A stretch of DNA of 64,000 nt from Spirochaetia bacterium. Its GTDB lineage: Bacteria > Spirochaetota > Spirochaetia > UBA9216. Numbering within the stretch: the stretch's first letter is position 1; the number at the start of each line of letters is the position of its first letter. The position numbers and the translations under genes are program-made. The stretch covers positions 544,001-608,000 of the forward strand of contig OY776510.1 of the NCBI GenBank assembly GCA_963675665.1. The letters run 5' to 3'. Below, piece by piece: positions 33,541 to 60,579 of this stretch. The notes below the pieces were generated by a model, which saw only the letters and a program-made list of their open reading frames with translations, was not told the DNA's origin and made no database searches.

Positions 33541-33553
33541 AATTAACTCCCTT

Positions 33554-33587: not shown

Positions 33588-33595
33588 TTCCCTGT

Positions 33596-34549: not shown

Positions 34550-34580
34550 ACGAACCTCCAAATATATTTTGCTGTCTTTA

Positions 34581-34596
34581 TGCAGGTTGCGTGCCA
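34581..34596 (-). promoter_or_regulatory. sigma54 (-24/-12) promoter
   Basis: TGGCACGCAACCTGCA versus consensus TGGCACG-N4-TTGCW; GG and GC correctly spaced. Confidence 0.7.
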
Positions 34597-34752
34597 AAAT
34601 TGTTATCGGGCAATAACAGAGGTATCTCTTTTATATATCAAATTTTATTATATATGTAGAATTTTAGATGTTTGAATTAATCAATACCCAGTTTTACCCG
34701 TTTACACGGAATGAGTAAATTCGGGGAGTGTTAAATATCGGGGAATTCTACA

Positions 34753-40359: not shown

Positions 40360-42687
40360 ATGTTATTTCTCAAAAAAATCCCATTATTTTTAATACTGAT
40401 ATTCTTATTATTTTCATGCGGTAATGAGAACAAGATTATAACAGAGCAAAATAACATTCAGGAACCAGTATTTTCATCGGAAGAACCAAAACAACCCGAC
40501 AATCCTCCTGTTGAGGTAACAACCGAAAAGCAACAGGCAATTATTACCTTTCTGACCGGCGACGTGACAAGACTGTCCGACAGCGAACAGGTTTTCGCAG
40601 AGATAGGGGACCAATTGTCGTTAAATGATACAATCCGGGTTAACGCTGATTCATACTGTGAAATTCAATTCGGGAACCGCGCCGTAATCAGGGTTGAAGA
40701 AAACACGGACCTTGCTTTAAGCTCGCTTCACCTTGAACAGGGGTATTCAAAAATCGGCATTGAACTTACAGCAGGCTCCATTCTCTGCAAGGTTGAAAAA
40801 CTGGCCAAAGACGAACGCTTCAGGGTTTCTACCGAAACAGCGGTATGCGGGGTCCGCGGGACTGAATTCAGAGTAAGCAGCAGCCCGGTAAAAACCGGGA
40901 GCTCCGTAAAGAAAACCGTTCTTTCCGTACAGGAAGGGGCTGTAGCCGTCACACCTCCCGCACTTGACGTTGAAAAGCTTGTCGCTTCCGTGAACGAAAA
41001 AACCGAAGCGGTTACAGAAATGCTTGAAAAAATCGAATCGTCAGCTGTTGTTGTTCAGGCAGATGAAGAAATTGATCTCACTGAAGACGTATTTGAACAG
41101 GTCGCGGAAACAGTTGAAAAAATAACCGAAGTTATCAGTATTATAGCAGCTTCCGAAGAAGAAACCGTAGTTTCAGAAAAACTGCTTGAACTTCAAAATC
41201 ACACGGAAGAGGCTTCAGCAGCTGTAAAAGCCCCGCCGGCTGAAATCAGGAAAATATCGGTAGAGAATTCCGAAAAGCTGAAAGCTCTCAAGGATGTAAG
41301 GATAATTAATCTTCCTGTAAAGACGATTTCGGAAAATGAAAAAACAGAAATCCCCGTCGTAAAGACGACTTCCGTATATACGCTGAACGTGACGGTGGAA
41401 CCCGCCGATTCCAATATAATATTTAATTCAAAACCGATTGGAACAGGCAGTTTTTCCGGTATTTTTGAGGAAGGGGAAACCCTTGTTATTGATTTTACCC
41501 ATGAAGGATATGAAAACCGGCATTATGAGATAACGGTATCCGCCGCAACCGAAGGACACCACAGAATCATTCTCGACCGGCTTCCTGAGGTTGAAAAGAC
41601 ACAGACGAAGCCCGGGCCCGTTGAAATTAAACCTGAAACTTCCCAAATTAAACCTTCGCCTGTCGCTGTCGAATCGGTTGAACCGGAACCTGAGCCCGAG
41701 CCGGAACCAATCGAAGCATTCATCACTGTTTCATCAGGCACCCTTACAGGTTCAGTCTCAGCAGATTCTGATTTGTTTTATGTTGCCGATTACAACGGAA
41801 CAGTCACAGCAATAACGCCTGAAGGCAATATTGCCTGGAAAATAAAAACGGAAAACAACTCTGTGGAAAATTCCTTCCCGTCTGCCGGCGAAGGATTGCT
41901 GTGCTTTTCAGGCGCTGCCGAATATATAATCCTGAACGGATCCTCAGGCCGGGTAATAAGCAAAAAACCCCTTGATGCGGAATCAGCTCATATTTTCGGA
42001 AGGCGCCTGGTGCCTACAAAAATCGGGCTGCTTCTTCCGACGAACAACAGCATCAGGATCCTTAACCCTTCAGACGGCAGTGAGACAAAAACAATCACGC
42101 TGCCTTCCGCCTCCGGAATGACTCCCGCTTTTTATAACGGGAAACTTCTTTCCGTTGATGTACATGGAACCTTTATTGTAATAAATCCTGCCGACGGAAG
42201 TATCTTAAGCAGCATTCCCACCGGGGCCGACCAGCCGATTGCACTGAGCATAACAATAAACAACGGTTCAGCTTTTTTTGCGGGAAGAAAGGGGACTGTT
42301 GTCTGTATAGATTTAAACAGCAACCGAGTCTTATGGGAAAAACAATTGCCGGGAGACAACCAGGTTTTCACAGATATTATCTGCAGCAGAACGGCAGCTC
42401 ATGTCTTCTCAAAAGGAAAGATATTCAGTCTTGATCTTAAAACCGGAAAAGAAATATTCAATGCCGCTGAAGACGCTTCCGCACCTGCGACCGTTTATAA
42501 AAACAACCTGGTTTACGGAAGCAATAAGGGAAAAATTATCCTGGCCGATGCATCCAACGGTGTCATCGTAAAAGAGCTGGATATAGATGGAATAATATCA
42601 ACACGGCCGGCAGTACTTGACGACAGAATTGCAGCGGGAACAGAAAGCGGAAAGTTTTTGATAATCAACCCTGAGGCTGTTCACTGA
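40360..42687 (+). CDS. Lipoprotein with FecR domain, PEGA-like domain, EP linker and PQQ-like (BamB-type) beta-propeller
   Basis: LLFSC lipobox; TETAVCGVRGTEFRV (FecR); LNVTVEPADS...GYEN; EPEPEPEPEP; repeated G...W propeller blades. Confidence 0.8.
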   Translation: MLFLKKIPLFLILIFLLFSCGNENKIITEQNNIQEPVFSSEEPKQPDNPPVEVTTEKQQAIITFLTGDVTRLSDSEQVFAEIGDQLSLNDTIRVNADSYCEIQFGNRAVIRVEENTDLALSSLHLEQGYSKIGIELTAGSILCKVEKLAKDERFRVSTETAVCGVRGTEFRVSSSPVKTGSSVKKTVLSVQEGAVAVTPPALDVEKLVASVNEKTEAVTEMLEKIESSAVVVQADEEIDLTEDVFEQVAETVEKITEVISIIAASEEETVVSEKLLELQNHTEEASAAVKAPPAEIRKISVENSEKLKALKDVRIINLPVKTISENEKTEIPVVKTTSVYTLNVTVEPADSNIIFNSKPIGTGSFSGIFEEGETLVIDFTHEGYENRHYEITVSAATEGHHRIILDRLPEVEKTQTKPGPVEIKPETSQIKPSPVAVESVEPEPEPEPEPIEAFITVSSGTLTGSVSADSDLFYVADYNGTVTAITPEGNIAWKIKTENNSVENSFPSAGEGLLCFSGAAEYIILNGSSGRVISKKPLDAESAHIFGRRLVPTKIGLLLPTNNSIRILNPSDGSETKTITLPSASGMTPAFYNGKLLSVDVHGTFIVINPADGSILSSIPTGADQPIALSITINNGSAFFAGRKGTVVCIDLNSNRVLWEKQLPGDNQVFTDIICSRTAAHVFSKGKIFSLDLKTGKEIFNAAEDASAPATVYKNNLVYGSNKGKIILADASNGVIVKELDIDGIISTRPAVLDDRIAAGTESGKFLIINPEAVH

Positions 42688-42703: not shown

Positions 42704-44326
42704 TTAATTCCCGTTTATCCTGTTCAGCTCTTCGTTGAGGATTTCTATCTGGGCTTTATTCTCTGCTCCTATGGCTTCAAGTCCGGATGATTCCTCTACA
42801 ATTATTTCACCGAGTCTTTTTAACGATTCTATATTCTCTTTTGTCTGATCAACAGCTTTTTTAATATCATCAATACTCTGGTTGCCGTTGTCTATTTCAT
42901 CTTTCATCGATGAAAGCGATTGTTGAACGATATCATTCGAATTACGCAGGTTCGTTACTGAATCGGATATCGAATCGGTACCGGCTGACAGTTCAACCAT
43001 GCTTCGGACAATATCCGACAGAGATTGTCCCATATTGGTAATCTCATTTATCAGGCCGGAAAAAACCTTCTGCATTTCATGAGCGGCCTGATTTGAATCT
43101 TCGAAATGTTCATTATTGCTGGTAATACTTTTTCTTATTGCTTCCGAGTTATGCGCTGTCTCCTCGGACAGTTTTCGGATCTCCTCGGCTACAACAGCAA
43201 ACCCCTTGCCCGCCTCACCGGCGTGGGCGGCTTCAATAGCGGCGTTCATTGCAAGCATATTCGTCCTGCTTGAAATTACTTCGATTACTTCTATAATTTC
43301 AAGAATGTCGTCCGTCGATTCCGACAGTCTGTTCAGGGAATTCAGCGAATCTTCAAGCTTGCCTTCACCTTTCCGTGCAGCTTCATTCAGACGGTCCACC
43401 TGCCCCAGTTTCTGTTCTGCAAGCCGGCTTACAAAGGAGATCTGGGCCAGAATCTGTTCTACCGCTGCCGACGACTGGTTTATTGCCTCGGTCTGAAGCT
43501 GACTTTTTTCGCTTACCTTTTTCCCGGATTCCATTATCTGCATATTGGAACTGCCGCCCCGGTCGGTTGAGTTTTTAAGATCTTCTACAATTTTTCCAAT
43601 ATTGCCCAATTTGGCAGAAATATCTCCGGCGCTTCTGCTTGTTGACTCTGCTGCAGACATCAGTTTTTCACCGACATCAAATGAGGCTCTCATTTCATCA
43701 ATAACACCGTTTATCCGTTTAAAACTTTCTTCGGCCTTAACTTTTTCAGTCTGAGCCGCAGATATTGATCTGAGCTGCATTCTGAATACAAGAATCGCAA
43801 ACAGCGCCGCCATGAAAAGAAAAGTGATCGAAATAATAAACTGCCCGGTTATGTCCGTTTCACCATGTTCTTCGGCAAAAGGCATAAGCAGAATAAAAAA
43901 GAACAGGGCCTGCCCGGCAAGGCCCGCGCCTGCAACTATTATCATCTGCCAGATATTATAAGCCAGCAACGGAGCGACGCAAATGACGGATATTATATAG
44001 GTCGAAAACTTGTAAAGATCATCAAGTTCATTATGTTCCTGAATCATGAACATAATGAAAGCGGCTGCCGTGAAAAGTACTATGCTTACTATACTGCTGA
44101 TTTTATATTTTCCACGATACAGAATAATAATATTGACCGCAAGGATGGCAGATACTACAGCCTCTCCTGCCGCCACAGTATAGCTTGATTCAAGCAGGCG
44201 GATTGTTGCAAACATTATAAAGAATATCCCAAGAATAAAGTTTATCACCAACAGGGTGACTGCCTTTTCCTGAAAATTGCTGTTCTCAATTCTGTAAACG
44301 TCTTTAAGTCTGTTAATCGGGTTCAT
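42704..44326 (-). CDS. Methyl-accepting chemotaxis protein with multi-TM sensor
   Basis: [34 protein letters not shown]; about 6 N-terminal TMs; ATG 44326 lies 6 nt after TTGAAA-17-CATAAT. Confidence 0.93.
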
Positions 44327-44450
44327 ATATGAATTATGATTCATTGTCAAATTAATTTCAAATCAGATTGATAAAAAACCGGCTGTTTTTATCATGTCCC
44401 AAAAATAAAGACCTACTTTCAAACAGGCCTTTATTTTGTTTTTATGCTGC

Positions 44451-45443
44451 TCAGGCAGCCTGACTCTTCATATGCTGAATGTGGTCTATTGAAACAGCAA
44501 AAAGAAGGATCAAACCTTTGATAAGGTCCTGCCAGTAAACCGAAACATCAAGCAAAATAAGAGAACTGGTTATAATTGACAGAAGTGCTATCCCGAGAAT
44601 TGAACCGAAAACGGTGCCTTCTCCGCCGGTAAGACTCGCTCCGCCGATAACAGCGGCAGATATGGCAGTCATCTCGAGCCCTACGCCGAAACCGGGCGTT
44701 GATGCGCCGAAGCGGGACATATAGATAATGCCGGCAAGCCCGGACAGGGTACAACACAGAACGCTTACGCCTATCTTGACCTTTTTAACCCTGATGCCGG
44801 AGAAGATAGCTGCTTTTTCATTGCTTCCGGTATAAAAAACTTTTCTCAGAACCGTGGAATTCCGCAGCATATAATCGCTGACTACCACAATCACAAGAAA
44901 TATTATTATTACAAACGGAAAAGGTCCGATAGAACCCTGCCCTATAAACTTGAAACTCTGCGGCAGGGTAAAAAGGGACAATGGAGTTCCCTGGGTTATA
45001 ACAAAACATGCCCCGCGGGCTATCCCCATAAATGCCAGTGTCGTGATAAAATGCACCAGCCCTATTTTTGTAACAAGCAGCCCCTGGATTGCGCCTATAC
45101 CCGCACAAACAACCAGGGCAATGACACTTGCAACCCACGGATTAACCCCCACCAAAAAGAGTTTTCCCGCAATACACATAGCCAGACACATTACCGCGCC
45201 GACGGACAAGTCGATTCCGCCCAGAACCAGGATTACAGTCATTCCTACAACGACGATTCCTTCGGTTGCGAATGAAAGGAAAATAGCCTTCCAGTTGCTC
45301 CAGGTCATAAAATAAGGGGAAAGGAAGCTCATAAGAATACAGACAGCAGCGATGATCAGAATCAGCGTGCCTTCCCTGAAATTCTTAAATCTGTTGAACA
45401 GACTGATAATTCCGCCTGTTTTCATCTTAATATTTTCAACCAT
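44451..45443 (-). CDS. Sugar ABC permease (RbsC family)
   Basis: GGIDLSVGA, FITTL, GSNEKAAIFSGI, AAVIGGASL. Confidence 0.95.
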   Translation of the reverse strand: MVENIKMKTGGIISLFNRFKNFREGTLILIIAAVCILMSFLSPYFMTWSNWKAIFLSFATEGIVVVGMTVILVLGGIDLSVGAVMCLAMCIAGKLFLVGVNPWVASVIALVVCAGIGAIQGLLVTKIGLVHFITTLAFMGIARGACFVITQGTPLSLFTLPQSFKFIGQGSIGPFPFVIIIFLVIVVVSDYMLRNSTVLRKVFYTGSNEKAAIFSGIRVKKVKIGVSVLCCTLSGLAGIIYMSRFGASTPGFGVGLEMTAISAAVIGGASLTGGEGTVFGSILGIALLSIITSSLILLDVSVYWQDLIKGLILLFAVSIDHIQHMKSQAA

Positions 45444-45458
45444 AATTTATATTCTCCC

Positions 45459-46967
45459 TTATGCTCCGATCTTTTCCAGGCCGGAAGCCATGTGGATTAT
45501 TTTCTTTTCGTTTATATCGTTACCGGTAATAATACCGCAGTTGTCGCCTTCATGCATAACAAGCACGCGATCGCTCATCCCGATAAGTTCCGGCAGTTCG
45601 GAGGATATCATTATCACCCCTATTCCCTGACAGGTCAATTCGCGAATCAGCTTATGGATTTCTGCTTTTGCTCCGACATCAATACCCCGTGTAGGTTCAT
45701 CCATGATAACGACCTTCGGGTTTACCGACAACAGCTTTCCGATTAAAACCTTCTGCTGATTTCCACCCGACAGGGACGAAACATCCTGCCCCAGAGAACT
45801 GAATTTTACATTCAGTTTCTTCGTATATTCATCAGCCAGCTTTCTTTCCCTGCCGTTATCCACCATTCCGTTCACAGAGACGGCTTCCAGATTCAGGGCT
45901 GAAACATTCTTCTGAATTGACATCTCAAGAAATACACCCTCTACCTTTCGGTCCTCCGAGAGATATACTATTCCGTTTTCAATTGCATCACGGTAATCTC
46001 CGATACCGATACTATTTCCCTTAAAATAAATTTCTCCGCTTATTCTGGGGAAAAGACCGCATATGGATTTAACAACCTCGCTTCTTCCCGCGCCTATCAG
46101 ACCTGAAAGTCCCAGAATTTCTCCTTCATGAAGAGTAAACGATATATCCCTGAACCGATTTCCATCGGAAAAATTTTCTATTCTTAAAAGTTCTTCCTGC
46201 TCAGTACAATTGCCTTCAAATTTGGGCGGGTAAAGATCACTTATCTCCCGTCCGACCATCCTGCTGACGACCTCTTTTGAATTCGTCTTGTCGATATCCA
46301 GGCTTCCGCAGTATGTTCCGTCGCGCAGTATTGAAACCCTGTCGCATTGAGAAAAAATCTCAGCCATTCTATGGCTGATGTAAATCATGCTGATGCCATT
46401 TTTCTTAAGTTCATGCATGATCTTGAAAAGCGCTGTTGTCTCACTCTCGGTAAGCGCAGCAGTTGGTTCATCCAGAATGAGGATCTTGCAATTCAGCGAA
46501 AGAGCTTTTGCAATTTCAACTATCTGCTGATTCGAAATCGAAAGCTCACTGACCTTTTTCCTCGGATCAATATCGCCGAGCGGGGCAAGCGCCGTTCCGG
46601 CCCTCTTGTAGAGGTCCCTGTAATTTATAAAATTTTTTTCAGTACGGTTTATCTCCGACATGAATACATTTTCGGCCACCGTTACATGCTGACAAAGAGC
46701 AATCTCCTGGTGAACAAAGCCGATTCCGTACTGCTGTGCATCAAGCGGATTCCTGATGTTGACTTCTTCCCCGTTAATAAAGATCTGCCCCTCATCGGGC
46801 AGGTGAACACCGTCTATTATATTCATAAGAGTCGATTTACCTGCACCGTTCTCGCCGACCAGGGCGAGAACTTCTCCCTTCTTCAGAGTCAAATCAACCT
46901 TATCAAGGGCCCTTGTTCCGGGAAAATCCTTTACAATCCCTCTGACCTCTAATACAAATTCACTCAA
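45459..46967 (-). CDS. Sugar ABC ATPase (RbsA/MglA family)
   Basis: GENGAGKST, LILDEPT, SHR, SEDRK, LSGGNQQK; TTG 46967 with GGAGG. Confidence 0.96.
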   Translation of the reverse strand: MSEFVLEVRGIVKDFPGTRALDKVDLTLKKGEVLALVGENGAGKSTLMNIIDGVHLPDEGQIFINGEEVNIRNPLDAQQYGIGFVHQEIALCQHVTVAENVFMSEINRTEKNFINYRDLYKRAGTALAPLGDIDPRKKVSELSISNQQIVEIAKALSLNCKILILDEPTAALTESETTALFKIMHELKKNGISMIYISHRMAEIFSQCDRVSILRDGTYCGSLDIDKTNSKEVVSRMVGREISDLYPPKFEGNCTEQEELLRIENFSDGNRFRDISFTLHEGEILGLSGLIGAGRSEVVKSICGLFPRISGEIYFKGNSIGIGDYRDAIENGIVYLSEDRKVEGVFLEMSIQKNVSALNLEAVSVNGMVDNGRERKLADEYTKKLNVKFSSLGQDVSSLSGGNQQKVLIGKLLSVNPKVVIMDEPTRGIDVGAKAEIHKLIRELTCQGIGVIMISSELPELIGMSDRVLVMHEGDNCGIITGNDINEKKIIHMASGLEKIGA

Positions 46968-46999
46968 TTTGTTCCTCCAGAAACGCTGTAGCAATGCTT

Positions 47000-47028
47000 A
47001 AAAAGGCCGCAGGCTTCTCTGCGGCCTT
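47000..47028 (-). terminator. Hairpin after SBP gene
   Basis: AAGGCCGCAG-gcttct-CTGCGGCCTT plus short U-tract. Confidence 0.65.
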
Positions 47029-47041
47029 AATCAGACAAAAA

Positions 47042-48121
47042 CTATTCGTTTATACCTTTGGTGCCTCTTTTCTTGAGATATTTATCCCAATAGAAGTAAT
47101 CAGCATTGTCTTTGGTTACAACTGCAAGTCCGTTATCAACAAAAGGTATTCCCATCGGGTTGTAACCGGCTGCTTCGAAATCATTCATCGGTTCAATCAT
47201 GTTCGGATGTGCTGCAAGATAAAGCATCAGCATTCCGTAGTAACCCTGTGTGCCCTGATTCGGGTTAAGAGCTGCATAGATATCGCCTTCTTTAAGCATA
47301 TCGAGAACCTTGGCATTGATGTCTACACACATTACCTTGATGCCGGTTCCGAGTTCCTTGGCCGCCTGTGCAGCGCCCATTCCTGAACTTGCTTCCGGCA
47401 TGAAAATACCACCGAGTTTCGGATGGGCCTGTGCCATGGTCATTACAGCCTGGTATGCCTTGTTCGGATCCTGGTTTGTTGCAGCTCTGGCAACTACCTT
47501 CATATTCGGATAAGTGCTTTCAATTCTGCTTACGAAAGATTTTACTCTCAGATCGTGGTTGTCCTGTCCCGGATTTTCAAGTACGGCTACTTCACCTTTC
47601 TCACCAAGAGCCTTGGCAATAGTATCGGCTGCATATTCACCTTCACGAACATTATCGGAAGTGATGTAGGAAACTCTCTTTGAGTTCGGAGAATCAGCGG
47701 CAAATGTAACAACAGGAATACCCATTTCGGCTGCTCTGTTGATAGGTTCAATAAATGCATCCGGATTCATCGGGTGAAGAAGAATACCGGCCGGTTTCTT
47801 TGCAAGAATCTGCTCAAATACTGCAAGCTGCTTGTTAACATCATACTCGGGAGTACCTGTATATACAGTTTTTACACCAAGCTGCCATGCACATTCTTTC
47901 ATCATTTCGTATACCGGGAACCAATATTCTACACCGGATACCATAACACACATATAGTAAGTTTCTGAAGGATCCCCGACAAACGGTGAATCTACACCTT
48001 CAGCCTCTGCGGCCGCGGAGGCTGCAGCTTCTTCTTTTGCACAGCCGGAAAACGCAAATGTTGCAATGATTGCCAGTATGATTAGAACAACAATCATACT
48101 TTTAGTTCTCATGTTTTTCAT
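47042..48121 (-). CDS. Sugar ABC substrate-binding lipoprotein
   Basis: FSGC lipobox, EYW, GIPVVTFAADSP..R..YI.SDN; ATG 48121 with GGAG. Confidence 0.93.
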   Translation of the reverse strand: MKNMRTKSMIVVLIILAIIATFAFSGCAKEEAAASAAAEAEGVDSPFVGDPSETYYMCVMVSGVEYWFPVYEMMKECAWQLGVKTVYTGTPEYDVNKQLAVFEQILAKKPAGILLHPMNPDAFIEPINRAAEMGIPVVTFAADSPNSKRVSYITSDNVREGEYAADTIAKALGEKGEVAVLENPGQDNHDLRVKSFVSRIESTYPNMKVVARAATNQDPNKAYQAVMTMAQAHPKLGGIFMPEASSGMGAAQAAKELGTGIKVMCVDINAKVLDMLKEGDIYAALNPNQGTQGYYGMLMLYLAAHPNMIEPMNDFEAAGYNPMGIPFVDNGLAVVTKDNADYFYWDKYLKKRGTKGINE

Positions 48122-48163
48122 AAACTCTCCTTTAAAGTTTTTCATGACATTCGTTAATTATAT

Positions 48164-48179
48164 TGCAACTATCGTGCCA
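48164..48179 (-). promoter_or_regulatory. sigma54 (-24/-12) promoter
   Basis: TGGCACGATAGTTGCA, an exact match to TGGCACG-N4-TTGCW. Confidence 0.88.
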
Positions 48180-48252
48180 ATCATGCCGATTCAGGATAAG
48201 TTACCGTTTTGAAAGAACTTAGCAGAACGGAATTTTCCTGATTAACAGAATG

Positions 48253-48303
48253 TGTTCAGATTTTGGACAAAAGGCCGGGTTTACACTGTACAATTGAAGT
48301 ACA
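48253..48303. promoter_or_regulatory. Candidate enhancer (UAS) pair
   Basis: Two 17-bp TGT-N11-ACA dyads: TGTTCAGATTTTGGACA (48253-48269) and TGTACAATTGAAGTACA (48287-48303). Confidence 0.5.
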
Positions 48304-48358
48304 CTTGAACGTTTTCGCTTTAATGCTTTTTGTATCCATGGTAAAGTATTGCCAGACA

Positions 48359-49654
48359 ATGAATAGAATTCTTATTATAGATGATAACCGGAAAATACTC
48401 GACACGCTTTCACGAAATTTCCTTTCGGAGGGCATTGAATGCCGCACGGCTGCCAATACCGCCGAAGGCATTGAAGCGCTGCAATGCTGCCCGATAGATC
48501 TGGCGCTTGTCGATATACGCATAGGAGATGAAAGCGGAATTGATGCGCTTATCGAAATAAAAAAACTGATACCTGATATCCCGGTTTTAATGATAACCGG
48601 GTTCGGTACAATTGAAACAGCTGTTGAAGCCATAAAACTGGGCGCCAGCGAATATATAAAAAAACCTGTTCGTTTTCCGGAGCTTCTGAAACAGGTAAAA
48701 CTCTTTCTTAAGGACGAACCGAGCGAGCTGCCTGCAATTCCGAACCTGCAGACGAAAAATCCGCAGATGATAGCATTGATAAAAAAAGCGATCAAACTTG
48801 CCCAGTCGAATCTTTCGGTACTGATACTCGGAGAAAGCGGAACCGGAAAAGAGGTTTTCGCCGATCTTATTCACCGAAATTCTCCGCGAACTGACAATCC
48901 CTTTCTGAGGGTAAACTGCGCAGCTTTTCCCGATACCCTTCTGGATAATGAGCTTTTCGGGCATGAAAAAGGGGCCTATACAGGCGCTGATGATAAATTC
49001 CAGGGTGTTTTTGAACGTGCTGATACAGGGACCCTCTTTCTTGATGAACTCGGCGACATGCCGCTGGCCATTCAGGCCAAAATCCTCAGGGCAATACAGG
49101 AACATGAAATAAGAAGACTGGGCGGCAAGGATATTATTAATATAGATGTAAGGTTTATAGGCGCAACTAATCATAATCTAGAGCAGATGGTAGCTGAAAA
49201 AAAATTCCGTCAGGATCTTTACTACAGGCTTAACTGTGCCGCCCTTAAGCTTCCGGCTTTACGGGAACGAAAAGAAGACATACCTATTCTGACGGAATAT
49301 ATTCTCAACCAGGTCACAACACCGGAACGGCGGGTAAGCCTTGCTCCGGAAACCATGGAGACGCTTCTGTCATATGACTGGCCGGGAAATATTCGTGAGC
49401 TTAAGGCCGCACTGAATTACGGAGCGACAATCTGCACCAACTCGGTAATAAGACCGGAAGATCTTCCCATGGGTGATCATCCGGTAAAAATGGCAAGCAG
49501 CGGACTTTCTCCCGGGCAGGCTGTCGAGAGAGAGCTTTTTTTAAAAACCCTGATAAAACACGGGTTTAATAAAAAAAAGGCGGCTGAAGAGCTTGGAATC
49601 TCACGAACGACATTATACAGCAAAATGAACAAATACGGTATCAATGACCAGTAA
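48359..49654 (+). CDS. NtrC-family sigma54-dependent response regulator (REC-AAA+-Fis HTH)
   Basis: ILIIDD, LVDIRI, ITGFG, KP; GESGTGKE, GAYTGA, LFLDE, FRQDLYYRL, WPGNIREL, AAEELGISRTTLY; ATG 48359. Confidence 0.95.
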   Translation: MNRILIIDDNRKILDTLSRNFLSEGIECRTAANTAEGIEALQCCPIDLALVDIRIGDESGIDALIEIKKLIPDIPVLMITGFGTIETAVEAIKLGASEYIKKPVRFPELLKQVKLFLKDEPSELPAIPNLQTKNPQMIALIKKAIKLAQSNLSVLILGESGTGKEVFADLIHRNSPRTDNPFLRVNCAAFPDTLLDNELFGHEKGAYTGADDKFQGVFERADTGTLFLDELGDMPLAIQAKILRAIQEHEIRRLGGKDIINIDVRFIGATNHNLEQMVAEKKFRQDLYYRLNCAALKLPALRERKEDIPILTEYILNQVTTPERRVSLAPETMETLLSYDWPGNIRELKAALNYGATICTNSVIRPEDLPMGDHPVKMASSGLSPGQAVERELFLKTLIKHGFNKKKAAEELGISRTTLYSKMNKYGINDQ

Positions 49655-51482
49655 CGAACATGAGAACATAATAAAACTGAATAATATTTCCCTTAAATAC
49701 GGCCAGTTCAACGCTCTTAAAAACATAGACTTCACAATCAGAAAATCGGAGATTCACGCTGTAATAGGAGAACACGGGGCCGGAAAATCATCTCTGGCAC
49801 AGATTCTCAGCGGATACATAAAACCCGACGACGGTATTTTTCTTTGGAAAAATAATCCGGTCCAGCTGTCTTCACCCCAGGAAGCCAAGGAACTTGGTAT
49901 TGAGATTGTGATGCAGGAAATTGAACAGTATGAGCGTCTTTCCCTGTCGCAGAATCTCTTTGGAAACAGCCCGGATTTTTTTAAAAAGAAGTTTTTCACA
50001 CGCAAGGAGCTGAACAGAAAAACCGATGAATATTTCGGTTCGCTGGGTTTTTCATCCTTTTCCGGCGCCCAGAAAATTTACAGCCTCAAGGATACCGAAA
50101 AAGTTCTGCTTGAATTGTTAAAACACCTGCTGCCCCGACCCGATCTGCTGATACTGGACGAGACCTTCGAAAAAATGACCGCAGTGGATCTTAACAAGAT
50201 GATTCCTGTTCTGAAAGAACGAAAGGCTGAAGGTCTTGGAATCCTCTTTATTACTCACCGAATCGATGATGTTTACACCTTTGCCGATCGCGTTACCGTT
50301 ATACGAAACGGCAGAATTCTGACAACAGAATCGGTTAAAAACATCGATAAAATCAATCTTATCAAACTGGCCTACACCCAGGTTGTTCAGGAAAGCAGTC
50401 TCGATACGACAACACAGGAGTTCTACCAGCTTCTTAAATACAACAGGGCAATTCTTGAAACCCTGCCCGTTAACCTTATTGTCGTGGATGAAAACAGGAT
50501 TCTCAGACTGCTTAACAATAACGCTAAAAACTATTTCAGCATCGGAGACACCCCGGCTCTCGGCATACCTCTTAAAAAGCTTGATATCATCACTTCAAAT
50601 GATAAATTATACGAACAGATCCGGGCATCAATGGACAAGCGCAGGCTTGAGACCTTTACTACAAGACTGAAACATCACGACGGAAGGGAAACAATAAATT
50701 TTGTCACCGTCTACCCTATTTATGACGGTGTTTTGTTTATAGGCAGTATGATAATAATAAGCGACATTACGGAACAGGAGAGCCTGCGCGAAAAGCTTGA
50801 TTTTTCCGAACGCCTTGGATCCGTCGGACTGCTGGCGGCAGGAGTTTCGCATGAAATAAATAATCCTCTTGAAATCATAATGAACGAGGTAGATTATCTT
50901 CGAAAGACCTTGCCCGAGGGCGAACAACAAACAGTGCTTGATAATATTGAAGAAGAAGTCGGCAGCATTGAACAGATCGTAAGCAGCCTTGCAACCTTTT
51001 CAGACAGCTCGGCGCCGAAAACTGAAGACCTTGATCTCACGCCTCTTCTTACGCACATCCTGAACCTTGTCAAACATAATGCCGTACACAGGAATATCAT
51101 AATCAGTTTCACCGCGCCGGATGAAAAGATGATGCTAAGCTGCAACAGAACCGAAATCAAACAGATAATACTCAACCTGATAAGAAACAGTTTTGAAGCA
51201 ATTCATACCGACGGTATGCTCGAAGCAAGTCTTTCAAAAACAGTAATTGACAACAAGTCCTGGATTATGCTGATTTTCAGAGACACCGGACCCGGCATTA
51301 ACGATGATGATGCAAAAAAAATCTTTCTTCCGTTCTTTTCGAAAAAAACCGCTTCCGGTAATAATATGGGCCTTGGACTTTCTGTTTCCTACGGCATTAT
51401 AAACAAAATGAACGGTAAAATCAGCGTAGAGAACCATCCCGATGGCGGCTGCAAATTCACCATTCTGCTTCCTGCATCATAA
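49644..51482 (+). CDS. Soluble histidine kinase with an N-terminal sugar-ABC ATPase domain (NBD-PAS-HisKA-HATPase)
   Basis: GEHGAGKS, GIEIVMQE, LLILDE, FITHRIDDV..FADRVTVIRNG; PAS-like ILETLPVNLIVVD; SHEINNPL, NLIRNS, DTGPGI, FLPFFS, GLGLS; no TM. Confidence 0.92.
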   Translation: MTSNEHENIIKLNNISLKYGQFNALKNIDFTIRKSEIHAVIGEHGAGKSSLAQILSGYIKPDDGIFLWKNNPVQLSSPQEAKELGIEIVMQEIEQYERLSLSQNLFGNSPDFFKKKFFTRKELNRKTDEYFGSLGFSSFSGAQKIYSLKDTEKVLLELLKHLLPRPDLLILDETFEKMTAVDLNKMIPVLKERKAEGLGILFITHRIDDVYTFADRVTVIRNGRILTTESVKNIDKINLIKLAYTQVVQESSLDTTTQEFYQLLKYNRAILETLPVNLIVVDENRILRLLNNNAKNYFSIGDTPALGIPLKKLDIITSNDKLYEQIRASMDKRRLETFTTRLKHHDGRETINFVTVYPIYDGVLFIGSMIIISDITEQESLREKLDFSERLGSVGLLAAGVSHEINNPLEIIMNEVDYLRKTLPEGEQQTVLDNIEEEVGSIEQIVSSLATFSDSSAPKTEDLDLTPLLTHILNLVKHNAVHRNIIISFTAPDEKMMLSCNRTEIKQIILNLIRNSFEAIHTDGMLEASLSKTVIDNKSWIMLIFRDTGPGINDDDAKKIFLPFFSKKTASGNNMGLGLSVSYGIINKMNGKISVENHPDGGCKFTILLPAS

Positions 51483-51612
51483 TCAAACTCATCCTGATAA
51501 CCTTTCATGGATAGATAATCACCGAAAAGTATAATTTTGTAATATAAAATTTGTTTTGTTATATAAATTCCTCTTTACGGTTTGTCGCTTCTGTTATATA
51601 CTGAAAATTGTC

Positions 51613-52518
51613 ATGGATATTGTCAACAACAAACTGAAACATATTCTGCCTACAGGTTTTCTCTGTGCGGAAGTTCCCTACTGGGTAAAAGAGGAAGGCG
51701 CTGTCTATTTCTCCGATACCGAAAACCCGAGAATTGCAAAATATACACCGAAAACTGAAGAGCTGGAAATCATCTATGTTCCGTATAATTTTCAATGTCT
51801 TGCCAAATGCGAAAACGGCAGCTGGATCGGAACGGTCACGAACGGCGTGGTCATATGGAACCAGAAGAAGAACACTTGCCGGTATCTCGGAAATCCTGAA
51901 TACGGAAAAGCATCATTTTATCTGAATGACGGAACGGTCGACAGGAAAGGACGGTTTCTCTTCGGCTCGTTTGACATGGACAACCTTGAAGGGCACGGCG
52001 GCTCCGTTTACATGGTCGATCAGAATCTTGAAATAAAACGGCTTGCATCAGGCTTTTCCGTCTGCAACGGAATGGTTTTCAGCCGCGACAATAGAAAATT
52101 TTATATGAGCGAACAATTCGGCGGCCGGATACTGGAGTTTGACTGGGATGAAGAAAGGTGTGAATTATCAAATCAAAAAGCCCTTTATAATTTGCCTGCA
52201 GACAAAGGGCTGCCTGACGGTCTGATAATGGATTCGGAGGGGATGCTCTGGGTTGCACACTGGTGGGGATGGCAGCTTTCAAGAATATCTCCCGAAGGCT
52301 CGGTACTGGCCGAAATACCGATGCCGGTAAAAACTCCTACCTGCATGGCATTTATCGGAGAGAAACTTGATAAATTATTTATAACCACTGCAATTAAAGC
52401 TGTTGATGAGCAGGACCTTAAAAAAGGACCGCAGGCGGGAGATATATTTCAAATTGAACTGGATGTACCCGGGATTGAAGAAACCCGGTTTAAATATCTG
52501 AACAACGGAGGAAAATAA
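51613..52518 (+). CDS. SMP-30/gluconolactonase family sugar lactonase
   Basis: AEVPYW, LNDGTVD, CNGMVFS, PDGL..DSEG, PT..AF.G. Confidence 0.9.
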   Translation: MDIVNNKLKHILPTGFLCAEVPYWVKEEGAVYFSDTENPRIAKYTPKTEELEIIYVPYNFQCLAKCENGSWIGTVTNGVVIWNQKKNTCRYLGNPEYGKASFYLNDGTVDRKGRFLFGSFDMDNLEGHGGSVYMVDQNLEIKRLASGFSVCNGMVFSRDNRKFYMSEQFGGRILEFDWDEERCELSNQKALYNLPADKGLPDGLIMDSEGMLWVAHWWGWQLSRISPEGSVLAEIPMPVKTPTCMAFIGEKLDKLFITTAIKAVDEQDLKKGPQAGDIFQIELDVPGIEETRFKYLNNGGK

Positions 52519-53264
52519 TGGGTGATTCATTAAAAGGAAAAGTTGCTGTAATCAGCGGTGTCGCATCCGGATTCGCAAAAGCAACAGCAGAACTTTTTGC
52601 AAAAAAGGACCAGTGCAGCCTTGTGCTTATCGACATCGACGAAAAAGGACTGGAGGCCACCACAGAGAACTGCAGAAAATCAGGATCTGATGTACTGGTT
52701 ATTCAGGGGGACGTAATAAAGAGCGGTTTCTTTGATGATGTTGCAGCACAGACAAAAAGCAAATTCGGCAAATGCGATTGCCTGATAAACTATGCCGGCG
52801 GAGCAGTGAGGCTGGAACCTATAGAAACCATGACGGATGAGATATATGACAAGGTCATGAATCTAAACATGAAAAGCACACTGAGCTCATGCCGTGCATT
52901 TACCCCATTGCTGAAAACCCAGGGATACGGAAGAATAGTTAATGTTTCTTCGGTATGCGACAGACGCTCATGGCCCACCTGGTCGGTATATTCGGCAGCC
53001 AAGGCCGCTGTTAATGCTTTCAGCAAATGCCTTTATACCGAATTAAGACCGCATGGTATCGGAGTAACTCTACTGGTTCCCGGCGGTTCAAATACGGGAT
53101 TTCAGAAGGCTGAAAATGTTGATAAATTCGAATGGGATGAATCAATGGCTGTCCGCCCGGAGCATTTCGCCGATATGGTCTATGCAGCATGCACCCTGAC
53201 TAAGGGAGGCTGCGTATCCGAGATGGCTGTCTACGGCCTTGCCCAGGATATATCGGGGTTCTAA
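52518..53264 (+). CDS. Short-chain dehydrogenase/reductase
   Basis: SGVASGFA (divergent Gly motif), NYAG, NVSS, YSAAK, PGG. Confidence 0.88.
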   Translation: MGDSLKGKVAVISGVASGFAKATAELFAKKDQCSLVLIDIDEKGLEATTENCRKSGSDVLVIQGDVIKSGFFDDVAAQTKSKFGKCDCLINYAGGAVRLEPIETMTDEIYDKVMNLNMKSTLSSCRAFTPLLKTQGYGRIVNVSSVCDRRSWPTWSVYSAAKAAVNAFSKCLYTELRPHGIGVTLLVPGGSNTGFQKAENVDKFEWDESMAVRPEHFADMVYAACTLTKGGCVSEMAVYGLAQDISGF

Positions 53265-53292
53265 GCCTTAACAATTTTGTCTGCCGACGATG

Positions 53293-53329
53293 ATAAAACC
53301 TGTTCCGATCTTGTGCGGACAGGTTTTAT
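53293..53329 (+). terminator. Intrinsic terminator
   Basis: ATAAAACCTGT...ACAGGTTTTAT followed by T-rich tail. Confidence 0.65.
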
Positions 53330-53353
53330 TTATTACAATCATCCGGACGAACA

Positions 53354-54136
53354 ATGAGTGAGCATAACGAAGGCAAAGGCAAATATATTATACCCAATCT
53401 CTGGAGAGCTATAGAGCTTCTTGAATATCTGGCGGATAATCCCGAAGGACTCACAATCAGCGAGCTTGCAGATGCGCTGAGCCTTCCGACTAATTCCGTT
53501 TTCAGAATTCTGCGAACATTATCTGCAAAAGAGTATGTTATTCAAAAGCACAAACGCTACAGTGTCAGCAGCAAATTGTTTGCCCTCGGCGCTCATGCAA
53601 TAGCAGAAGAATCGCTTTTTGAAAAAATAACTCCGGTCATGAGGGATCTGCGCGACGAGCTTAAGGAAACTGTGATATTTGGAAAACTTTCAGGTCATAA
53701 CGGCGTGATTCTTGAACAGATGCAGGGACTTTTCCCTGTAAAAGTCGTTGTAGAAGTAGGATACAATTTTCCGCTTCACTGTTCCGCACCTGCAAAGGCC
53801 ATTATGGCCTTTCTTCCCGAACCAGAAAAACAGACGGTACTTGAACATTGCACTTTTCAAAAATATACGGAAAACACAATCACTGACAGAAAAAGTTTAA
53901 TCCATGAACTTGAACAGGTTGCCTTAAACGGATACGCACTGGATATGGAAGAAGCCGATTATGACGTACGCTGTATAAGCGCTCCCATTCTGAACGTCAG
54001 AGGTTATCCGGTTGCAGCGTTGTGGATTACCGGCCCCGTATCACGCTTATGCACAGAAACATGCCGAAAGTATGCCGATATACTAAAAGTAACCTGCAGC
54101 GAGGTTTCCCGGTCCATAGGATTCACCCACGCATAA
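53354..54136 (+). CDS. IclR-family transcriptional regulator
   Basis: RAIELLEYL...SVFRILRTL HTH; PLHCSAPAKA; GYALD.EE...CISAPI. Confidence 0.94.
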   Translation: MSEHNEGKGKYIIPNLWRAIELLEYLADNPEGLTISELADALSLPTNSVFRILRTLSAKEYVIQKHKRYSVSSKLFALGAHAIAEESLFEKITPVMRDLRDELKETVIFGKLSGHNGVILEQMQGLFPVKVVVEVGYNFPLHCSAPAKAIMAFLPEPEKQTVLEHCTFQKYTENTITDRKSLIHELEQVALNGYALDMEEADYDVRCISAPILNVRGYPVAALWITGPVSRLCTETCRKYADILKVTCSEVSRSIGFTHA

Positions 54137-54139
54137 AAT

Positions 54140-55090
54140 TTAAATCAGCTTTTCTACAGCTTTTGCCGTTTGCTCATCAATAATAAGATAATCAAGTATA
54201 CCCGTCTTCAGCCCCGCGACTATCGAATACTGTTTTTCAATACCGGCGACAAGGCAAACCACTTTTTCCGTATTTCCAAGCTGTTCGGGGGTACATGCAA
54301 GCAACAGCTCCGAATCTGGCCCTTTCAGGAATTTGCCCTCTGCGGAAACAGGCCACCCGCAGATGTCTCCGATCGCGTTTTTAAATTCGGGTGAATCCCT
54401 GAATTTATCGCTATTTTTGCCGGATTCTCCAAGCACACTGCCGGAAGATTTTTCCCCGATTGAAATAACAGCGATATTAAGTTCACTCCACAACCGGCTT
54501 ATCCGCTGCATCATCGCGCTGCTTTTATACAGCTGCAAATCATCTTCAGAGTCCGCTATTGCCGGCGCGTGAAGGAAATGCGGCGTTGCATTAAGCTTTT
54601 CCGCAAAATCCCGTACCATTTCATTCAGCTGATAGCGCTTCATGGGTCTGTTGCTTCCTCCGATCAGCGGTACGGCATTTATTTTCAGATAATTATGATC
54701 ACTGTAATACTGAGACATAAATTCATAACATGTCCGGCCCCAGGCAACCCCGACCGTATCCTGTTCATTAAGCAAATCATTGAAAACATCTACTGCACGT
54801 TCAGCAACAAGCCGGATGAGCATTTCCGAATTTTTAACTGCAGTAGGTACTACATAGCAATGCTTAAGACCGAAGCATTGCTCAAAAAGACTGCTTAGCT
54901 CGTCATTATTTCCCATCGGGTTTCTTAATTTGATTTCAACAAGACCTTCGTTTCTTGCTTCAGTCAGAAACATGGAAATTGAGGATCTTGACCTGTTTAC
55001 TACTGCCGCTATCTCATCCTGTTTTTTACCTTCCAGGTAATACATCCTGGCAACATTATACAACAGCTGTTTATCAACTTTGGTTTTCAT
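54140..55090 (-). CDS. SorC/LsrR-type sugar-binding transcriptional regulator
   Basis: ARMYYLEG..QDEIA, GVAWGRT, PLIGG, GDICG, AGIEK, LIIDE. Confidence 0.92.
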   Translation of the reverse strand: MKTKVDKQLLYNVARMYYLEGKKQDEIAAVVNRSRSSISMFLTEARNEGLVEIKLRNPMGNNDELSSLFEQCFGLKHCYVVPTAVKNSEMLIRLVAERAVDVFNDLLNEQDTVGVAWGRTCYEFMSQYYSDHNYLKINAVPLIGGSNRPMKRYQLNEMVRDFAEKLNATPHFLHAPAIADSEDDLQLYKSSAMMQRISRLWSELNIAVISIGEKSSGSVLGESGKNSDKFRDSPEFKNAIGDICGWPVSAEGKFLKGPDSELLLACTPEQLGNTEKVVCLVAGIEKQYSIVAGLKTGILDYLIIDEQTAKAVEKLI

Positions 55091-55099
55091 AAGTTTCTC

Positions 55100-56572
55100 T
55101 CAAAGATTTTTCAGTGCATTAACATATTTTAAGAAATTATCATACTTTTGAGAATATATCTCTGCAAGTTCTGGATTAGGCTGTACAATCCGTGAGACTC
55201 GGACCATTTTATTTGTTGCCGCTTCAAAGCTTTCATACTCTCCGGCGCCTACAGCAGCTCCGATTGCAGCCCCGAGGGTACCAATCTCTTCAGCTTCGGT
55301 AATTTCTATAGGCATCTTCAGAATATCAGCAAACATCTGAACCCAGACATCGGATTTTGATACACCGCCTGAAATCCTGACGCTTCGGACCGGTCCCCTG
55401 TGAGGGAACAGCCTGTCGAGATGCAGTTTATGACCGAAAACAACCCCTTCATAGACAGCACGAAGCATATGTGCTTTTGTATGCCAGCCGTTAAGACCGA
55501 TAAAACATGACGAAAGATCTCCAACGCTGCTGGCAAACAGAAAAGGAAAAAACACGACAGCAGAATCTTCCGGCTTCATCGAATCAACAATCCTGTTGAT
55601 TTCATCATAGCTTTCACCGTTCATCAGGTTTTTTATAAACCACTCAAGGTTTGTGGCTGAGGTAGCGCTTGCCTCCGTCACAAGCCAGTATCCCGGAATT
55701 CCGTAAATACTCGTCATAAAAAGCTCTTTTGATCCAACCGGTTTCTTACTTATAAACTGGTTAATACTCCAGGTTCCTGCAACTATACTCAAATCCTGAT
55801 CATCCGTCAGACCGGTAGCTATTGCGCATGCGTCTATATCAAAAAACCCGCCCATTACCGGCGTGCCTGCAATCAACCCGGTTTGCCCGGCAACTTCTTC
55901 AGTTATTTTTCCGCAAATATCAGTAGATTTTCGCAGCGGTGGAAGTTTATCCTTAAATTCTCTGATTCCGAAATCATCCAGAAGCTCATCGTCGTAATCA
56001 ACTTTAATAACATTAACAAGATTTGTACCTGAATAATCAGTTATCTCGGCGAAAGCCTCTCCTGTAAGTTTAAAGCGGATAAAATCCTTGCACATCAGGA
56101 TCCAGCGTGTTTTTTGCAGATCCTCGGGCCTGTTCTCACGAAACCAGTTCAGAAGGGATACCGGCTGTGCGGCCCAGATAGACTGTAGGGTTTTTTTATT
56201 TATTTTTTCGAATGTTCCGTCACTGTACCATTTATCAACCCATTTCTTTGCCCGGCTGTCGGTAGAAATTATACCGTTACCTACTGAATTACCATCTGAA
56301 TCAACAAGGAACATTCCATTACCGTGACCTGTGGGGGCAATACCTGCAATATCTTCAGGATCAACTCCGCTGTTTCTGACAACCTCGGCAATTGCTTCAA
56401 GGTTTGCTGTCCAGAATTCTTTCATATCCTTTTCGGTATGACCGGGTTCAGGATATATCATTTCAATTTTTCTGCTTGCAAGAGCCAGCTCATTCCCTTT
56501 ATTATCATAAAGAGCAACCTTGCAGACGGTTCCTCCGTTATCAATTCCCATAAAATATCTGCTCATAAACAC
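55100..56572 (-). CDS. FGGY carbohydrate kinase (L-xylulokinase LyxK-like)
   Basis: GIDNGGT, GHGNG, STDSRA, CKDFIR, AGTWSIN, YEGVVF, SGG. Confidence 0.88.
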   Translation of the reverse strand: MFMSRYFMGIDNGGTVCKVALYDNKGNELALASRKIEMIYPEPGHTEKDMKEFWTANLEAIAEVVRNSGVDPEDIAGIAPTGHGNGMFLVDSDGNSVGNGIISTDSRAKKWVDKWYSDGTFEKINKKTLQSIWAAQPVSLLNWFRENRPEDLQKTRWILMCKDFIRFKLTGEAFAEITDYSGTNLVNVIKVDYDDELLDDFGIREFKDKLPPLRKSTDICGKITEEVAGQTGLIAGTPVMGGFFDIDACAIATGLTDDQDLSIVAGTWSINQFISKKPVGSKELFMTSIYGIPGYWLVTEASATSATNLEWFIKNLMNGESYDEINRIVDSMKPEDSAVVFFPFLFASSVGDLSSCFIGLNGWHTKAHMLRAVYEGVVFGHKLHLDRLFPHRGPVRSVRISGGVSKSDVWVQMFADILKMPIEITEAEEIGTLGAAIGAAVGAGEYESFEAATNKMVRVSRIVQPNPELAEIYSQKYDNFLKYVNALKNL

Positions 56573-59344: not shown

Positions 59345-59381
59345 AACTGTTAACTCCTAAACTACTAAATTGTTTTCTTTG

Positions 59382-59413
59382 CGGATCTACGATCCGTACG
59401 GATCGTAGATCCG
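59382..59413. repeat. Perfect 32-bp palindrome
   Basis: CGGATCTACGATCCGTACGGATCGTAGATCCG equals its own reverse complement. Confidence 0.95.
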
Positions 59414-59537
59414 TTTTTAACTCCTTTTTTGCTGCAACTACTTCAGCTAAGTCAAATAATCCAACCTCCTTAAAATAATTATGTTTTTTATCTCATCCGC
59501 ACCAGCCAACCCCGGCTTTGGGTTGCCTGATGCTCCA

Positions 59538-60563: not shown

Positions 60564-60579
60564 TATTTCCTCCGTTTCC

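Follow-up and report, generated by a model that had tools for sequence, protein, structure and literature searches.

By what route does a histidine kinase with no predicted membrane helix, which carries at its N-terminus a single nucleotide-binding domain (NBD) of the kind found in ATP-binding cassette (ABC) sugar importers, receive its signal? The question is raised by five genes, three on the minus strand and two on the plus strand, at 44451-51482 of a 64,000-nt stretch of contig OY776510.1 (assembly GCA_963675665.1, Spirochaetia bacterium, UBA9216). This whole stretch is referred to here as the window, and coordinates are positions within it unless a locus of another genome is named. The minus-strand operon encodes a sugar-binding protein (SBP), an ABC ATPase with two NBDs and a permease; divergent from it lie the genes for an NtrC-type activator and for the kinase. 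The kinase belongs to a real, widespread and uncharacterised family, which may be a variant of transporter-coupled signalling and for which a mechanism can be proposed. The best explanation, given a probability of roughly 0.4, is a two-component system in which the soluble kinase uses its one NBD, derived from the first NBD (NBD1) of an RbsA-type ATPase, as an input domain that docks on the permease.

The kinase gene (49644-51482, plus strand) is one unbroken frame of 612 aa. Pfam places ABC_tran at residues 25-175 (E = 1e-17; 65.5 bits, above the gathering cut-off of 25 for PF00005), PAS_4 at 271-379 (1e-6), HisKA at 395-455 (5e-11; 42.9 bits) and HATPase_c at 502-611 (4e-20; 72.8 bits), the last two being those of a class I (HisKA) histidine kinase. 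An NBD followed by PAS, HisKA and HATPase domains in one protein is what the initial annotation had described. It had also seen no transmembrane segment, and this agrees with the hydropathy profile. The most hydrophobic 19-residue stretch (Kyte-Doolittle score 1.77, residues 354-372) falls on a pair of PAS beta-strands in the structural model, so no membrane helix is predicted.

The canonical motif set of an ABC NBD is present: A-loop Y19, Walker A GEHGAGKS (42-49), Q-loop VMQE (Q91), Walker B LLILDE (168-173) and H-loop THR (204-206). What is lacking is a canonical C-loop, since LKDTEK (family consensus LNLSDR) stands at the position of LSGGQ, and a canonical D-loop (SALD, of the ATP-sandwich dimer), since DETFEKMT in the window's kinase, or DEALEKLS, replaces DEPTxxLD after Walker B. 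The motifs quoted in the initial annotation, DETF included, were all found; the degenerate signature had been missed. By its motifs the protein is classed as a bona fide HisKA kinase joined to an NBD of ABC fold without the dimer motifs. In an AlphaFold2 (AF2) model built from a 28-sequence alignment, residues 8-244 have a predicted local distance difference test (pLDDT) score of about 85-92. A fold search put the NBD closest to LptB and MJ1267 (target-normalised template modelling (TM) scores 0.77-0.86) and showed the kinase half to resemble YF1 and other PAS-kinases, with the cytoplasmic domain of ZraS (9jfj) as a neighbour. None of the listed PDB matches, which are either PAS-kinases or NBDs, covers both halves (best query-normalised TM-score 0.36).

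The ancestry of the NBD can be narrowed further. Its residues of about 2-260 align to positions of about 2-250 of the NCBIfam models for YtfR, LsrA, AraG, AlsA, XylG, MglA and RbsA, with scores that are all far under the cut-offs (for YtfR, 143 against 850 bits), and no NCBIfam model is specific to the NBD-kinase fusion. Against the neighbouring ATPase, its alignment to NBD1 reaches 114 bits (28% identity) and that to the second NBD (NBD2) 59 bits. These alignments bear out the earlier assignment to the RbsA/MglA type and class the domain as NBD1 rather than NBD2. The kinase is nevertheless not to be counted as a member of the RbsA-type ATPase family on these scores, because it has one NBD and then PAS-HisKA-HATPase_c, instead of two NBDs in a chain of about 500 aa, and because it stays under the cut-offs; nor is it AtoS or ZraS, again because of scores below the cut-offs. 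The initial annotation had supposed that the second NBD was replaced by a kinase. This stands in so far as the PAS-kinase part starts where NBD2 would; it finds no support as the filling of a missing NBD, the linked transporters having their own two-NBD ATPases.

According to a passage of a 2024 transporter analysis (PMC11466899), RbsA of B. subtilis has one degenerate ATP site, with a deviating signature and a second Walker A without its lysine. The window's 511-aa ATPase repeats this pattern of one consensus and one degenerate site, with GENGAGKS and the signature LSISNQQ in NBD1 and GAGRS and the signature LSGGNQQ in NBD2. As the kinase NBD keeps its Walker A and has no partner with a canonical signature in its own chain, it corresponds to the 'Walker A half' of the single consensus site.

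The fusion is not confined to the window. In a search of 5.8 billion proteins, all 120 listed homologues are 594-635 aa long, have PF00005, PF00512 and PF02518, and are 40-80% identical to the query; the named ones among the matches listed are from Spirochaetales, Vecturithrix, Moduliflexus, KSB3 and Desulfomarina. An exhaustive search of 1.84 billion representatives (50% clustering) returned 124 of 570-660 aa among the best 150, and for representatives of about 600 aa a single alignment runs from about residue 8 to 611, at identities as low as 26%. Named members and loci together spread the family over Spirochaetota, KSB3 (Moduliflexus, Vecturithrix), Planctomycetota and Desulfomarina. In an Atlas search the kinase's own cluster carried ABC_tran in 100% and HisKA in 98%, with Spirochaetota as the commonest source. 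These lengths and spreads indicate a genuine fusion of long standing. An assembly or frameshift artefact joining an ATPase fragment to a kinase gene, which would have undone the initial annotation, has a negligible probability and was rejected: the frame is unbroken, and homologues of this full length number in the hundreds and come independently from many assemblies and phyla. Database labels of the homologues ('ATP-binding cassette domain-containing protein', 'signal transduction histidine kinase/ABC-type ... ATPase component') register the domains and nothing further. In a tblastn search of a plasmid collection, none of the 670 matching records spans at least 80% of the kinase query.

Some matches lie outside the main group. 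The short, NBD-only P0190, P0267 and P0264 (241-292 aa) may come from split genes or from genes truncated where a contig ends, and they were left unused. The Atlas search also gave, as leads, clusters of about 830-850 aa with ABC_tran, GAF_2 and HisKA (in some with HATPase_c), mostly from Actinomycetota (feature scores 0.83). P0228 (851 aa) combines ABC_tran with two stretches of HisKA.

Conservation within the family is uneven. Across 28 members, Y19, G42-E-H-G-x-G-K48, Q91 and L169-I-L-D-E173 are fixed or at least 90% kept, and T204-H-R is kept nearly always; in the kinase core H403, N511, D547, G549, G551, G576 and G578 (the H, N, G1 and G2 boxes) are invariant. None of the 28 has a canonical LSGGQ signature, the region reading LNLSDR or LKDTEK, and the PT after Walker B DE is lost in all nine kinases compared. 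Among the best-kept stretches is the helix at the C-terminal end of the NBD, IDKINLIKLAYTQ, which leads into the PAS domain and in which D235, K236, L239, I240, K241 and Y244 are invariant or at least 90% conserved. Conservation is lowest in the PAS domain, where pairwise identity averages 0.29; the averages are 0.36 in the NBD and 0.39 in the kinase core. The Walker A is non-canonical in 42 of the 124 full-length representatives, many having GEHRAGKS and some being fully degenerate, and two P-loop-degenerate representatives that were scanned (P0217 and P0221) still match ABC_tran.

The family keeps constant company. A genome scan retained 80 loci, of which 73 held ordinary kinases brought in by the generic pattern GV[AS]HEINN and 7 held the fusion (8 kinases), a small sample of neighbourhoods. 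A gene for an NtrC-type protein (REC-sigma54-HTH_8) directly precedes the kinase in all eight of these systems, and a complete operon of SBP, two-NBD ATPase and BPD_transp_2 permease adjoins the kinase in seven. In the eighth, L013, the contig ends after a -24/-12 element, an SBP gene and a cyclase gene. In nine cases the longest contigs recorded for a kinase and for a permease orthologue were also of identical length, some of them being of 9-26 kb (8,983 and 17,067 nt, for example), which extends the linkage indirectly. The linkage seen at the outset is thus repeated in other genomes. The accessory genes differ from locus to locus (a lactonase and a dehydrogenase here; an alcohol dehydrogenase, an FGGY kinase, a URO-D-like gene or a cyclase elsewhere), so the systems probably serve different sugars.

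Linkage persists where the ATPase motifs have decayed. The kinase of L005 (9941-11746) has Walker B LILDQ, with Glu changed to Gln, and has no Q-loop Gln, and it still lies beside activator and SBP/ABC genes. The same is true, with SBP or ABC genes, of the GEHRAGKS kinases of L013 (3832-5634) and L029 (4941-6752, minus strand, and 9977-11791). Linkage is therefore independent of ATPase competence, as expected of a docking module.

A genome can carry more than one system. In L029 (1284-15940, from one Spirochaetota metagenome-assembled genome), two complete NBD-kinase/activator/ABC systems lie back to back, each operon with its own -24/-12 element; one activator open reading frame (ORF) there (8082-9980) has, as called, about 195 extra N-terminal residues. 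P0010, 76% identical to the window's kinase, is on a contig of the same size as that of L003 (535,156 nt), so that genome probably has at least two paralogues.

The ABC operon of the window has a predicted sigma54 promoter. The element TGGCACGATAGTTGCA is the window's only exact match to TGGCAC-N5-TTGCW, for which arithmetic gives about 0.06 expected matches per 64 kb on both strands at uniform base composition; allowing up to one mismatch raises the count to 3, where 1.57 would be expected. The exact -24/-12 promoter reported for the divergent operon is thereby upheld. It lies about 43 nt upstream of ATG 48121, the likely start of the SBP gene, which has GGAG 5 nt before it. The -12 GC at 48166/48165 should put the start of transcription near 48153, which would leave no space for a ribosome site before ATG 48145, so 48121 is the likelier SBP start. 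Upstream of the -24 element is an imperfect palindrome, a candidate only for the enhancer to which the activator would bind. Strict -24/-12 elements also stand just 5' of the adjacent ABC operon in L001, L003, L013 and L029 (two sites), that is, in five of the eight systems. Weaker GG-N10-GC sites are found in L002 (9 of 11 consensus bases) and L004 (8 of 11), and in L005 neither a strict nor a weaker site was found upstream of the ABC operon. In L003, the Thalassospirochaeta locus, the sigma54-driven operon opens with the URO-D-like gene (7215-8471, minus strand), ahead of the ATPase gene.

A further RbsABC-type operon of the window (33596-34597 / 32044-33540 / 31096-32043) has a second sigma54-like element, TGGCACGCAACCTGCA (34581-34596, minus strand; one mismatch), at the 5' end of its SBP ORF. 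No activator gene adjoins this operon, and a DeoR gene lies at 28362-29147.

An NBD of the NBD1 type has as its known partners ATP, the coupling helix of the permease and NBD2. With the motifs that face NBD2 gone, an ATP site that is dispensable in some lineages and linkage to RbsABC-type genes that is constant, docking on the permease fits best, and it is put forward tentatively, at a little under even odds. The analysis shows the architecture, its conservation, the gene linkage and the promoter; what follows on contact with the permease, on which way regulation runs and on what ATP does is a proposal. A kinase dimer would set its two NBDs on the cytoplasmic coupling helices of an RbsC-type permease dimer, in competition with the transporter's ATPase, and the 'sensor complex' so formed, in which the SBP joins the two dimers, would be in the minority. 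Docking of the sugar-loaded SBP would shift the conformation of the permease and hence the position of both NBDs, and the conserved helix at the end of the NBD would relay this change through the PAS domain to the dimerisation and phosphotransfer (DHp) and catalytic (CA) core. The kinase would then phosphorylate the NtrC-type activator, the sigma54 promoter would be opened, and the SBP, ATPase and permease would be induced. ATP bound at the NBD would probably stabilise one signalling state rather than power transport.

The docking itself, which the initial annotation had suggested, was put to two tests. When two permease copies were co-folded with NBD residues 1-250, the score was 0.43 (runs 0.38, 0.45 and 0.43) and the best of three controls was 0.00, which was graded as weak support; at least 81% of contacts agreed between runs and the partner pLDDT was at least 76. 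Of 157 solved complexes, 116 had attained the mark applied here, as had 2 of 215 mismatched pairs; at scores of 0.60 or below only 18 of the 157 had done so, along with both of the mismatched pairs that passed. Covariation was examined with a mirror-tree test of eight systems at 30-45% identity, a sample of too little power to be informative on docking, from which L013 was left out for want of a visible permease and in which L001 was represented by its right-hand operon. In these eight systems no covariation of NBD and permease was found (rho 0.02, p 0.48).

Several points weigh against docking on the permease, and the absent covariation is one of them. The co-fold score falls in a band where wrong calls outnumber right ones unless the pairing was already likely, and a pass may show likeness only, or recall, NBD-permease complexes having been solved in number. 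The identity of the NBD does track that of the activator (rho 0.63, p 0.001), unlike that of the permease, and the PAS domain weakly tracks the SBP (rho 0.41, p 0.007), which would suit ligand sensing by a cytoplasmic PAS domain too. Every linked transporter has a complete two-NBD ATPase, so there is no vacant site and the kinase would have to compete for one. Within the window's clade there is little or no variation at the A-loop Tyr, the Walker A Lys, the catalytic Glu or the H-loop His, and this conservation points to a nucleotide-dependent step that docking does not require. Lastly, permease orthologues (62-70% identity) occur in Vibrio, Hahella, Endozoicomonas and Mesorhizobium, none of which is among the named kinase matches listed, so a transporter of this type needs no such kinase.

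Many of the same observations are what would be expected if the kinase never contacts the transporter. The PAS domain would bind the imported sugar or a metabolite of it, and the NBD, captured from a neighbouring ATPase gene, would tune kinase or phosphatase activity to the nucleotide state. A PAS domain that is the least conserved part of the protein and that weakly covaries with the SBP, as if both recognised the same ligand, suits this explanation, as do the conserved ATP-binding residues of the window's clade, the lack of NBD-permease covariation and the fact that the transporter already owns a full ATPase. It is rather unlikely all the same. The 42 of 124 representatives without a canonical P-loop, two of which on scanning kept ABC_tran, and the continued ABC/SBP linkage of members with degenerate motifs rule out nucleotide sensing as the general function. 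PAS domains that bind sugars are uncommon. It is also left unexplained why the domain should always be NBD1 of one transporter family and why linkage should hold across phyla.

Contact might instead be made with the ATPase, by pairing in trans with an RbsA-type NBD (the kinase's Walker A against the LSGGNQQ of NBD2) or by binding the assembled ATPase, so that the kinase would report flux as BceS does with BceAB. The half-site fits well, as the kinase NBD has the Walker A, Walker B and H-loop half without a canonical signature, and the only canonical signature nearby is that of the ATPase's NBD2; RbsA-type ATPases, on the passage of PMC11466899 cited above, pair one consensus with one degenerate site. 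NBD1 and NBD2 are one polypeptide, however, so that NBD1 would have to be displaced; the D-loop region, through which NBDs touch one another, is lost in nine of the nine kinases compared; and no covariation with the ATPase was found in the eight systems (rho -0.01 for NBD1, -0.32 for NBD2). Such contact is improbable. The decay of ATPase motifs in several lineages would suit an NBD that is a scaffold or dimerisation remnant without any sensing role, in an ordinary PAS-kinase/NtrC pair regulating a sugar transporter. A remnant would hardly be kept at full length in 124 of the 150 best representatives, down to 26% identity, or have one of the family's best-conserved stretches in the helix joining it to the PAS domain, or be modelled with confidence by AF2, and this explanation is the least likely of those that accept the fusion.

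Docking of the NBD on the permease is thus retained as the best explanation. A wider claim is possible and somewhat more doubtful: that a soluble kinase makes use of the membrane part of an ABC importer, its permease dimer with the SBP, by plugging in NBD1-derived domains where the transport ATPase would sit. If it is true, the permease would exist in two forms, one transporting and one signalling, extracellular sugar could be sensed without uptake, and a signal would have a new route across the membrane. The NBD-GAF-kinase clusters of Actinomycetota, which are leads, would then mean wider use of the borrowed-permease principle. Pho, Bce, Mal and CbrA make up the handful of cases in which transport is known to be coupled to regulation, and the contact between an ABC importer and its regulator has been hard to pin down. 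Here the presumed contact domain is fused to the kinase, so the interface is named outright and can be tested with simple constructs. The family is large, with at least 124 clusters at 50% identity among the best 150, and since several kinase copies may occur in a genome, each beside a different sugar operon (L029; L003/P0010), one experiment could annotate many regulators. The natural series of ATPase motifs, from intact through Glu-to-Gln to GEHRAGKS, is ready material for work on the role of ATP in a signalling NBD.

The features of the window are collected in Table 1.

Table 1. Features of the system and related loci in the window
Feature	Position	Strand	Evidence
RbsC-type ABC permease, 330 aa, last gene of the operon	44451..45443	-	Pfam BPD_transp_2, 1.4e-30
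RbsA/XylG-type ABC ATPase, 511 aa, two NBDs	45459..46994	-	two Pfam ABC_tran stretches
Sugar-binding protein (SBP), probably a lipoprotein	47042..48121 (ORF-list start 48145)	-	Pfam Peripla_BP_4, 1.2e-55
Predicted sigma54 -24/-12 element TGGCACGATAGTTGCA	48164..48179	-	exact TGGCAC-N5-TTGCW; sole exact match in the window
Imperfect palindrome TCAGGATAA ... TTTTCCTGA, candidate activator-binding site	48191..48241	.	inverted repeat I1: 9-nt arms, 89% complementary, 33 nt apart
NtrC/AtoC-type sigma54 activator, REC - AAA+ - HTH_8	48359..49654 (ORF from 48263)	+	Pfam Response_reg, Sigma54_activat (3.4e-67), AAA_lid_14, HTH_8
N-terminal ABC NBD of the kinase, residues 1-244, RbsA NBD1 type	49644..50375	+	Pfam, NCBIfam, AF2 model
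PAS domain of the kinase, residues 271-379	50454..50780	+	Pfam PAS_4 and PAS
Kinase core, HisKA 395-455 (H403 in SHEINNPL) and HATPase_c 502-611	50826..51476	+	Pfam
Further RbsABC-type loci	31096-34597; 58391-62088; 63344-64000 (cut by window end)		DeoR or SorC-type regulator near first two (SorC-type gene 62174-63103)

The permease has the NCBIfam ribose ABC permease model as its top match, at a score under that model's cut-off, and has orthologues at 60-92% identity; the ATPase has full-length matches to the XylG and RbsA models, also under the cut-offs. The N-terminal hydrophobic stretch of the SBP ends in FSGC, which we take to be a lipobox, and the mature protein probably starts at the Cys. 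The activator has the REC, AAA+ and C-terminal HTH_8 domains of an NtrC-family enhancer-binding response regulator and matches the AtoC and ZraR models under their cut-offs (389 against 714 bits for AtoC). It likely starts at ATG 48359 (MNRILIIDD), just before the REC match, and not at the ORF start. Its loop reads GAYTGA, of the GAFTGA type, in which the change of Phe to Tyr presumably leaves a functional loop. The overlap of the activator and kinase genes seen at the outset amounts to 11 nt, from the kinase ATG at 49644 to the end of the activator stop codon (49652-49654).

Genes 3' of the kinase (51556-56572) encode an SMP-30/gluconolactonase-like protein, a short-chain dehydrogenase, IclR and SorC-type regulators and an FGGY sugar kinase, and judging from these annotations they hint at a sugar, a sugar lactone or a sugar acid as the substrate. 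A scan of the window gave 30 promoter-like sites (18.4 +/- 4.8 expected) and 13 terminator-like sites (10.3 +/- 3.6 expected); it did not locate a promoter of the activator/kinase pair itself, and the lactonase and dehydrogenase genes (51556-53264) may or may not be transcribed together with the pair. The window contains four RbsABC-type loci, the fusion kinase lies beside one of them only, and the source genome is rich in transporters of this type. Beside the partial locus at 63344-64000 no regulator gene was seen within the window.

On the other side, a gene for a methyl-accepting chemotaxis protein (42704-44350, minus strand) lies on the same strand as the permease gene and 100 nt 3' of it. 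Such genes also lie about 2-4 kb from the kinase in L003 and L004, which could be due to chance or could reflect an SBP-linked chemoreceptor. Beyond it are a gene for a 775-aa protein with a FecR domain and a PQQ_2/BamB-like beta-propeller (40360-42687, plus strand) and two minus-strand ORFs of 889 aa (36725-39394) and 253 aa (39443-40204) without a Pfam match at E <= 1e-5.

The initial annotation knew of no characterised kinase with this architecture, and no description of an NBD-histidine kinase was found in the open full-text literature, a search that did not cover subscription journals, so 'undescribed' is provisional; the available passages of PMC2853384, PMC13251363 and PMC1698476 hold nothing on such a fusion. 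By NCBIfam, the nearest relatives in sequence are AtoS/AtoC and ZraS/ZraR for the PAS-HisKA-HATPase_c part and the activator, with the window's kinase at 198 bits against a cut-off of 646 for AtoS. AtoS and ZraS are membrane proteins with periplasmic parts. For the NBD they are the RbsA, XylG and MglA ATPases, to whose NBD1 it aligns and whose non-canonical signature position it shares, and from which it differs in having one NBD instead of two, GEHG instead of GENG in Walker A, and no PT after Walker B.

Nucleotide-binding modules are tied to regulation elsewhere by other means. KdpD is a membrane-bound histidine kinase that regulates a transporter operon and has an N-terminal Walker A/B domain reported to tune its kinase or phosphatase activity to the nucleotide state. 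That domain is not an ABC NBD, and there is no KdpD-family match among the seven Pfam families of the window's kinase. In the MalK-MalT system the NBD subunit MalK is itself the signalling surface that ties the state of transport to transcription of the regulon. MalK sequesters the activator through an extra C-terminal regulatory domain, and neither a kinase nor a fusion is involved.

One of the near parallels in function is PstSCAB-PhoU-PhoR. There a PAS kinase that has no periplasmic sensor probably reads the state of an ABC importer on the cytoplasmic side, by way of the NBD, and controls the importer genes. In the system proposed here, too, a kinase would be tied to the ABC importer that it regulates. 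PstB, PhoU and the kinase are separate proteins, whereas the window's system unites NBD and kinase in a single chain and lacks a PhoU-like gene; PhoR is also membrane-anchored and works with an OmpR-type regulator and sigma70-type promoters. In BceAB-BceS, as described in a passage of PMC3023708, a kinase that cannot sense the stimulus alone relies on an ABC transporter and induces that transporter. That kinase is embedded in the membrane and contacts an exporter-like permease as a separate protein; here it is soluble, its NBD is fused to it and the transporter is an SBP-dependent importer.

The initial annotation had held that known transporter-coupled kinases all use separate proteins. This overlooks CbrA and CrbS, which passages of PMC13022988, PMC7096432 and PMC5715377 describe as fusions of an SLC5 transporter with a kinase. 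On these passages the likeness is that a transporter module is fused to a histidine kinase, which in the case of CbrA works with an NtrC-type activator (CbrB). The difference is that their transporter module is an SLC5 membrane domain, while in the family described here it is a soluble ABC ATPase domain, for which the membrane part would be borrowed.

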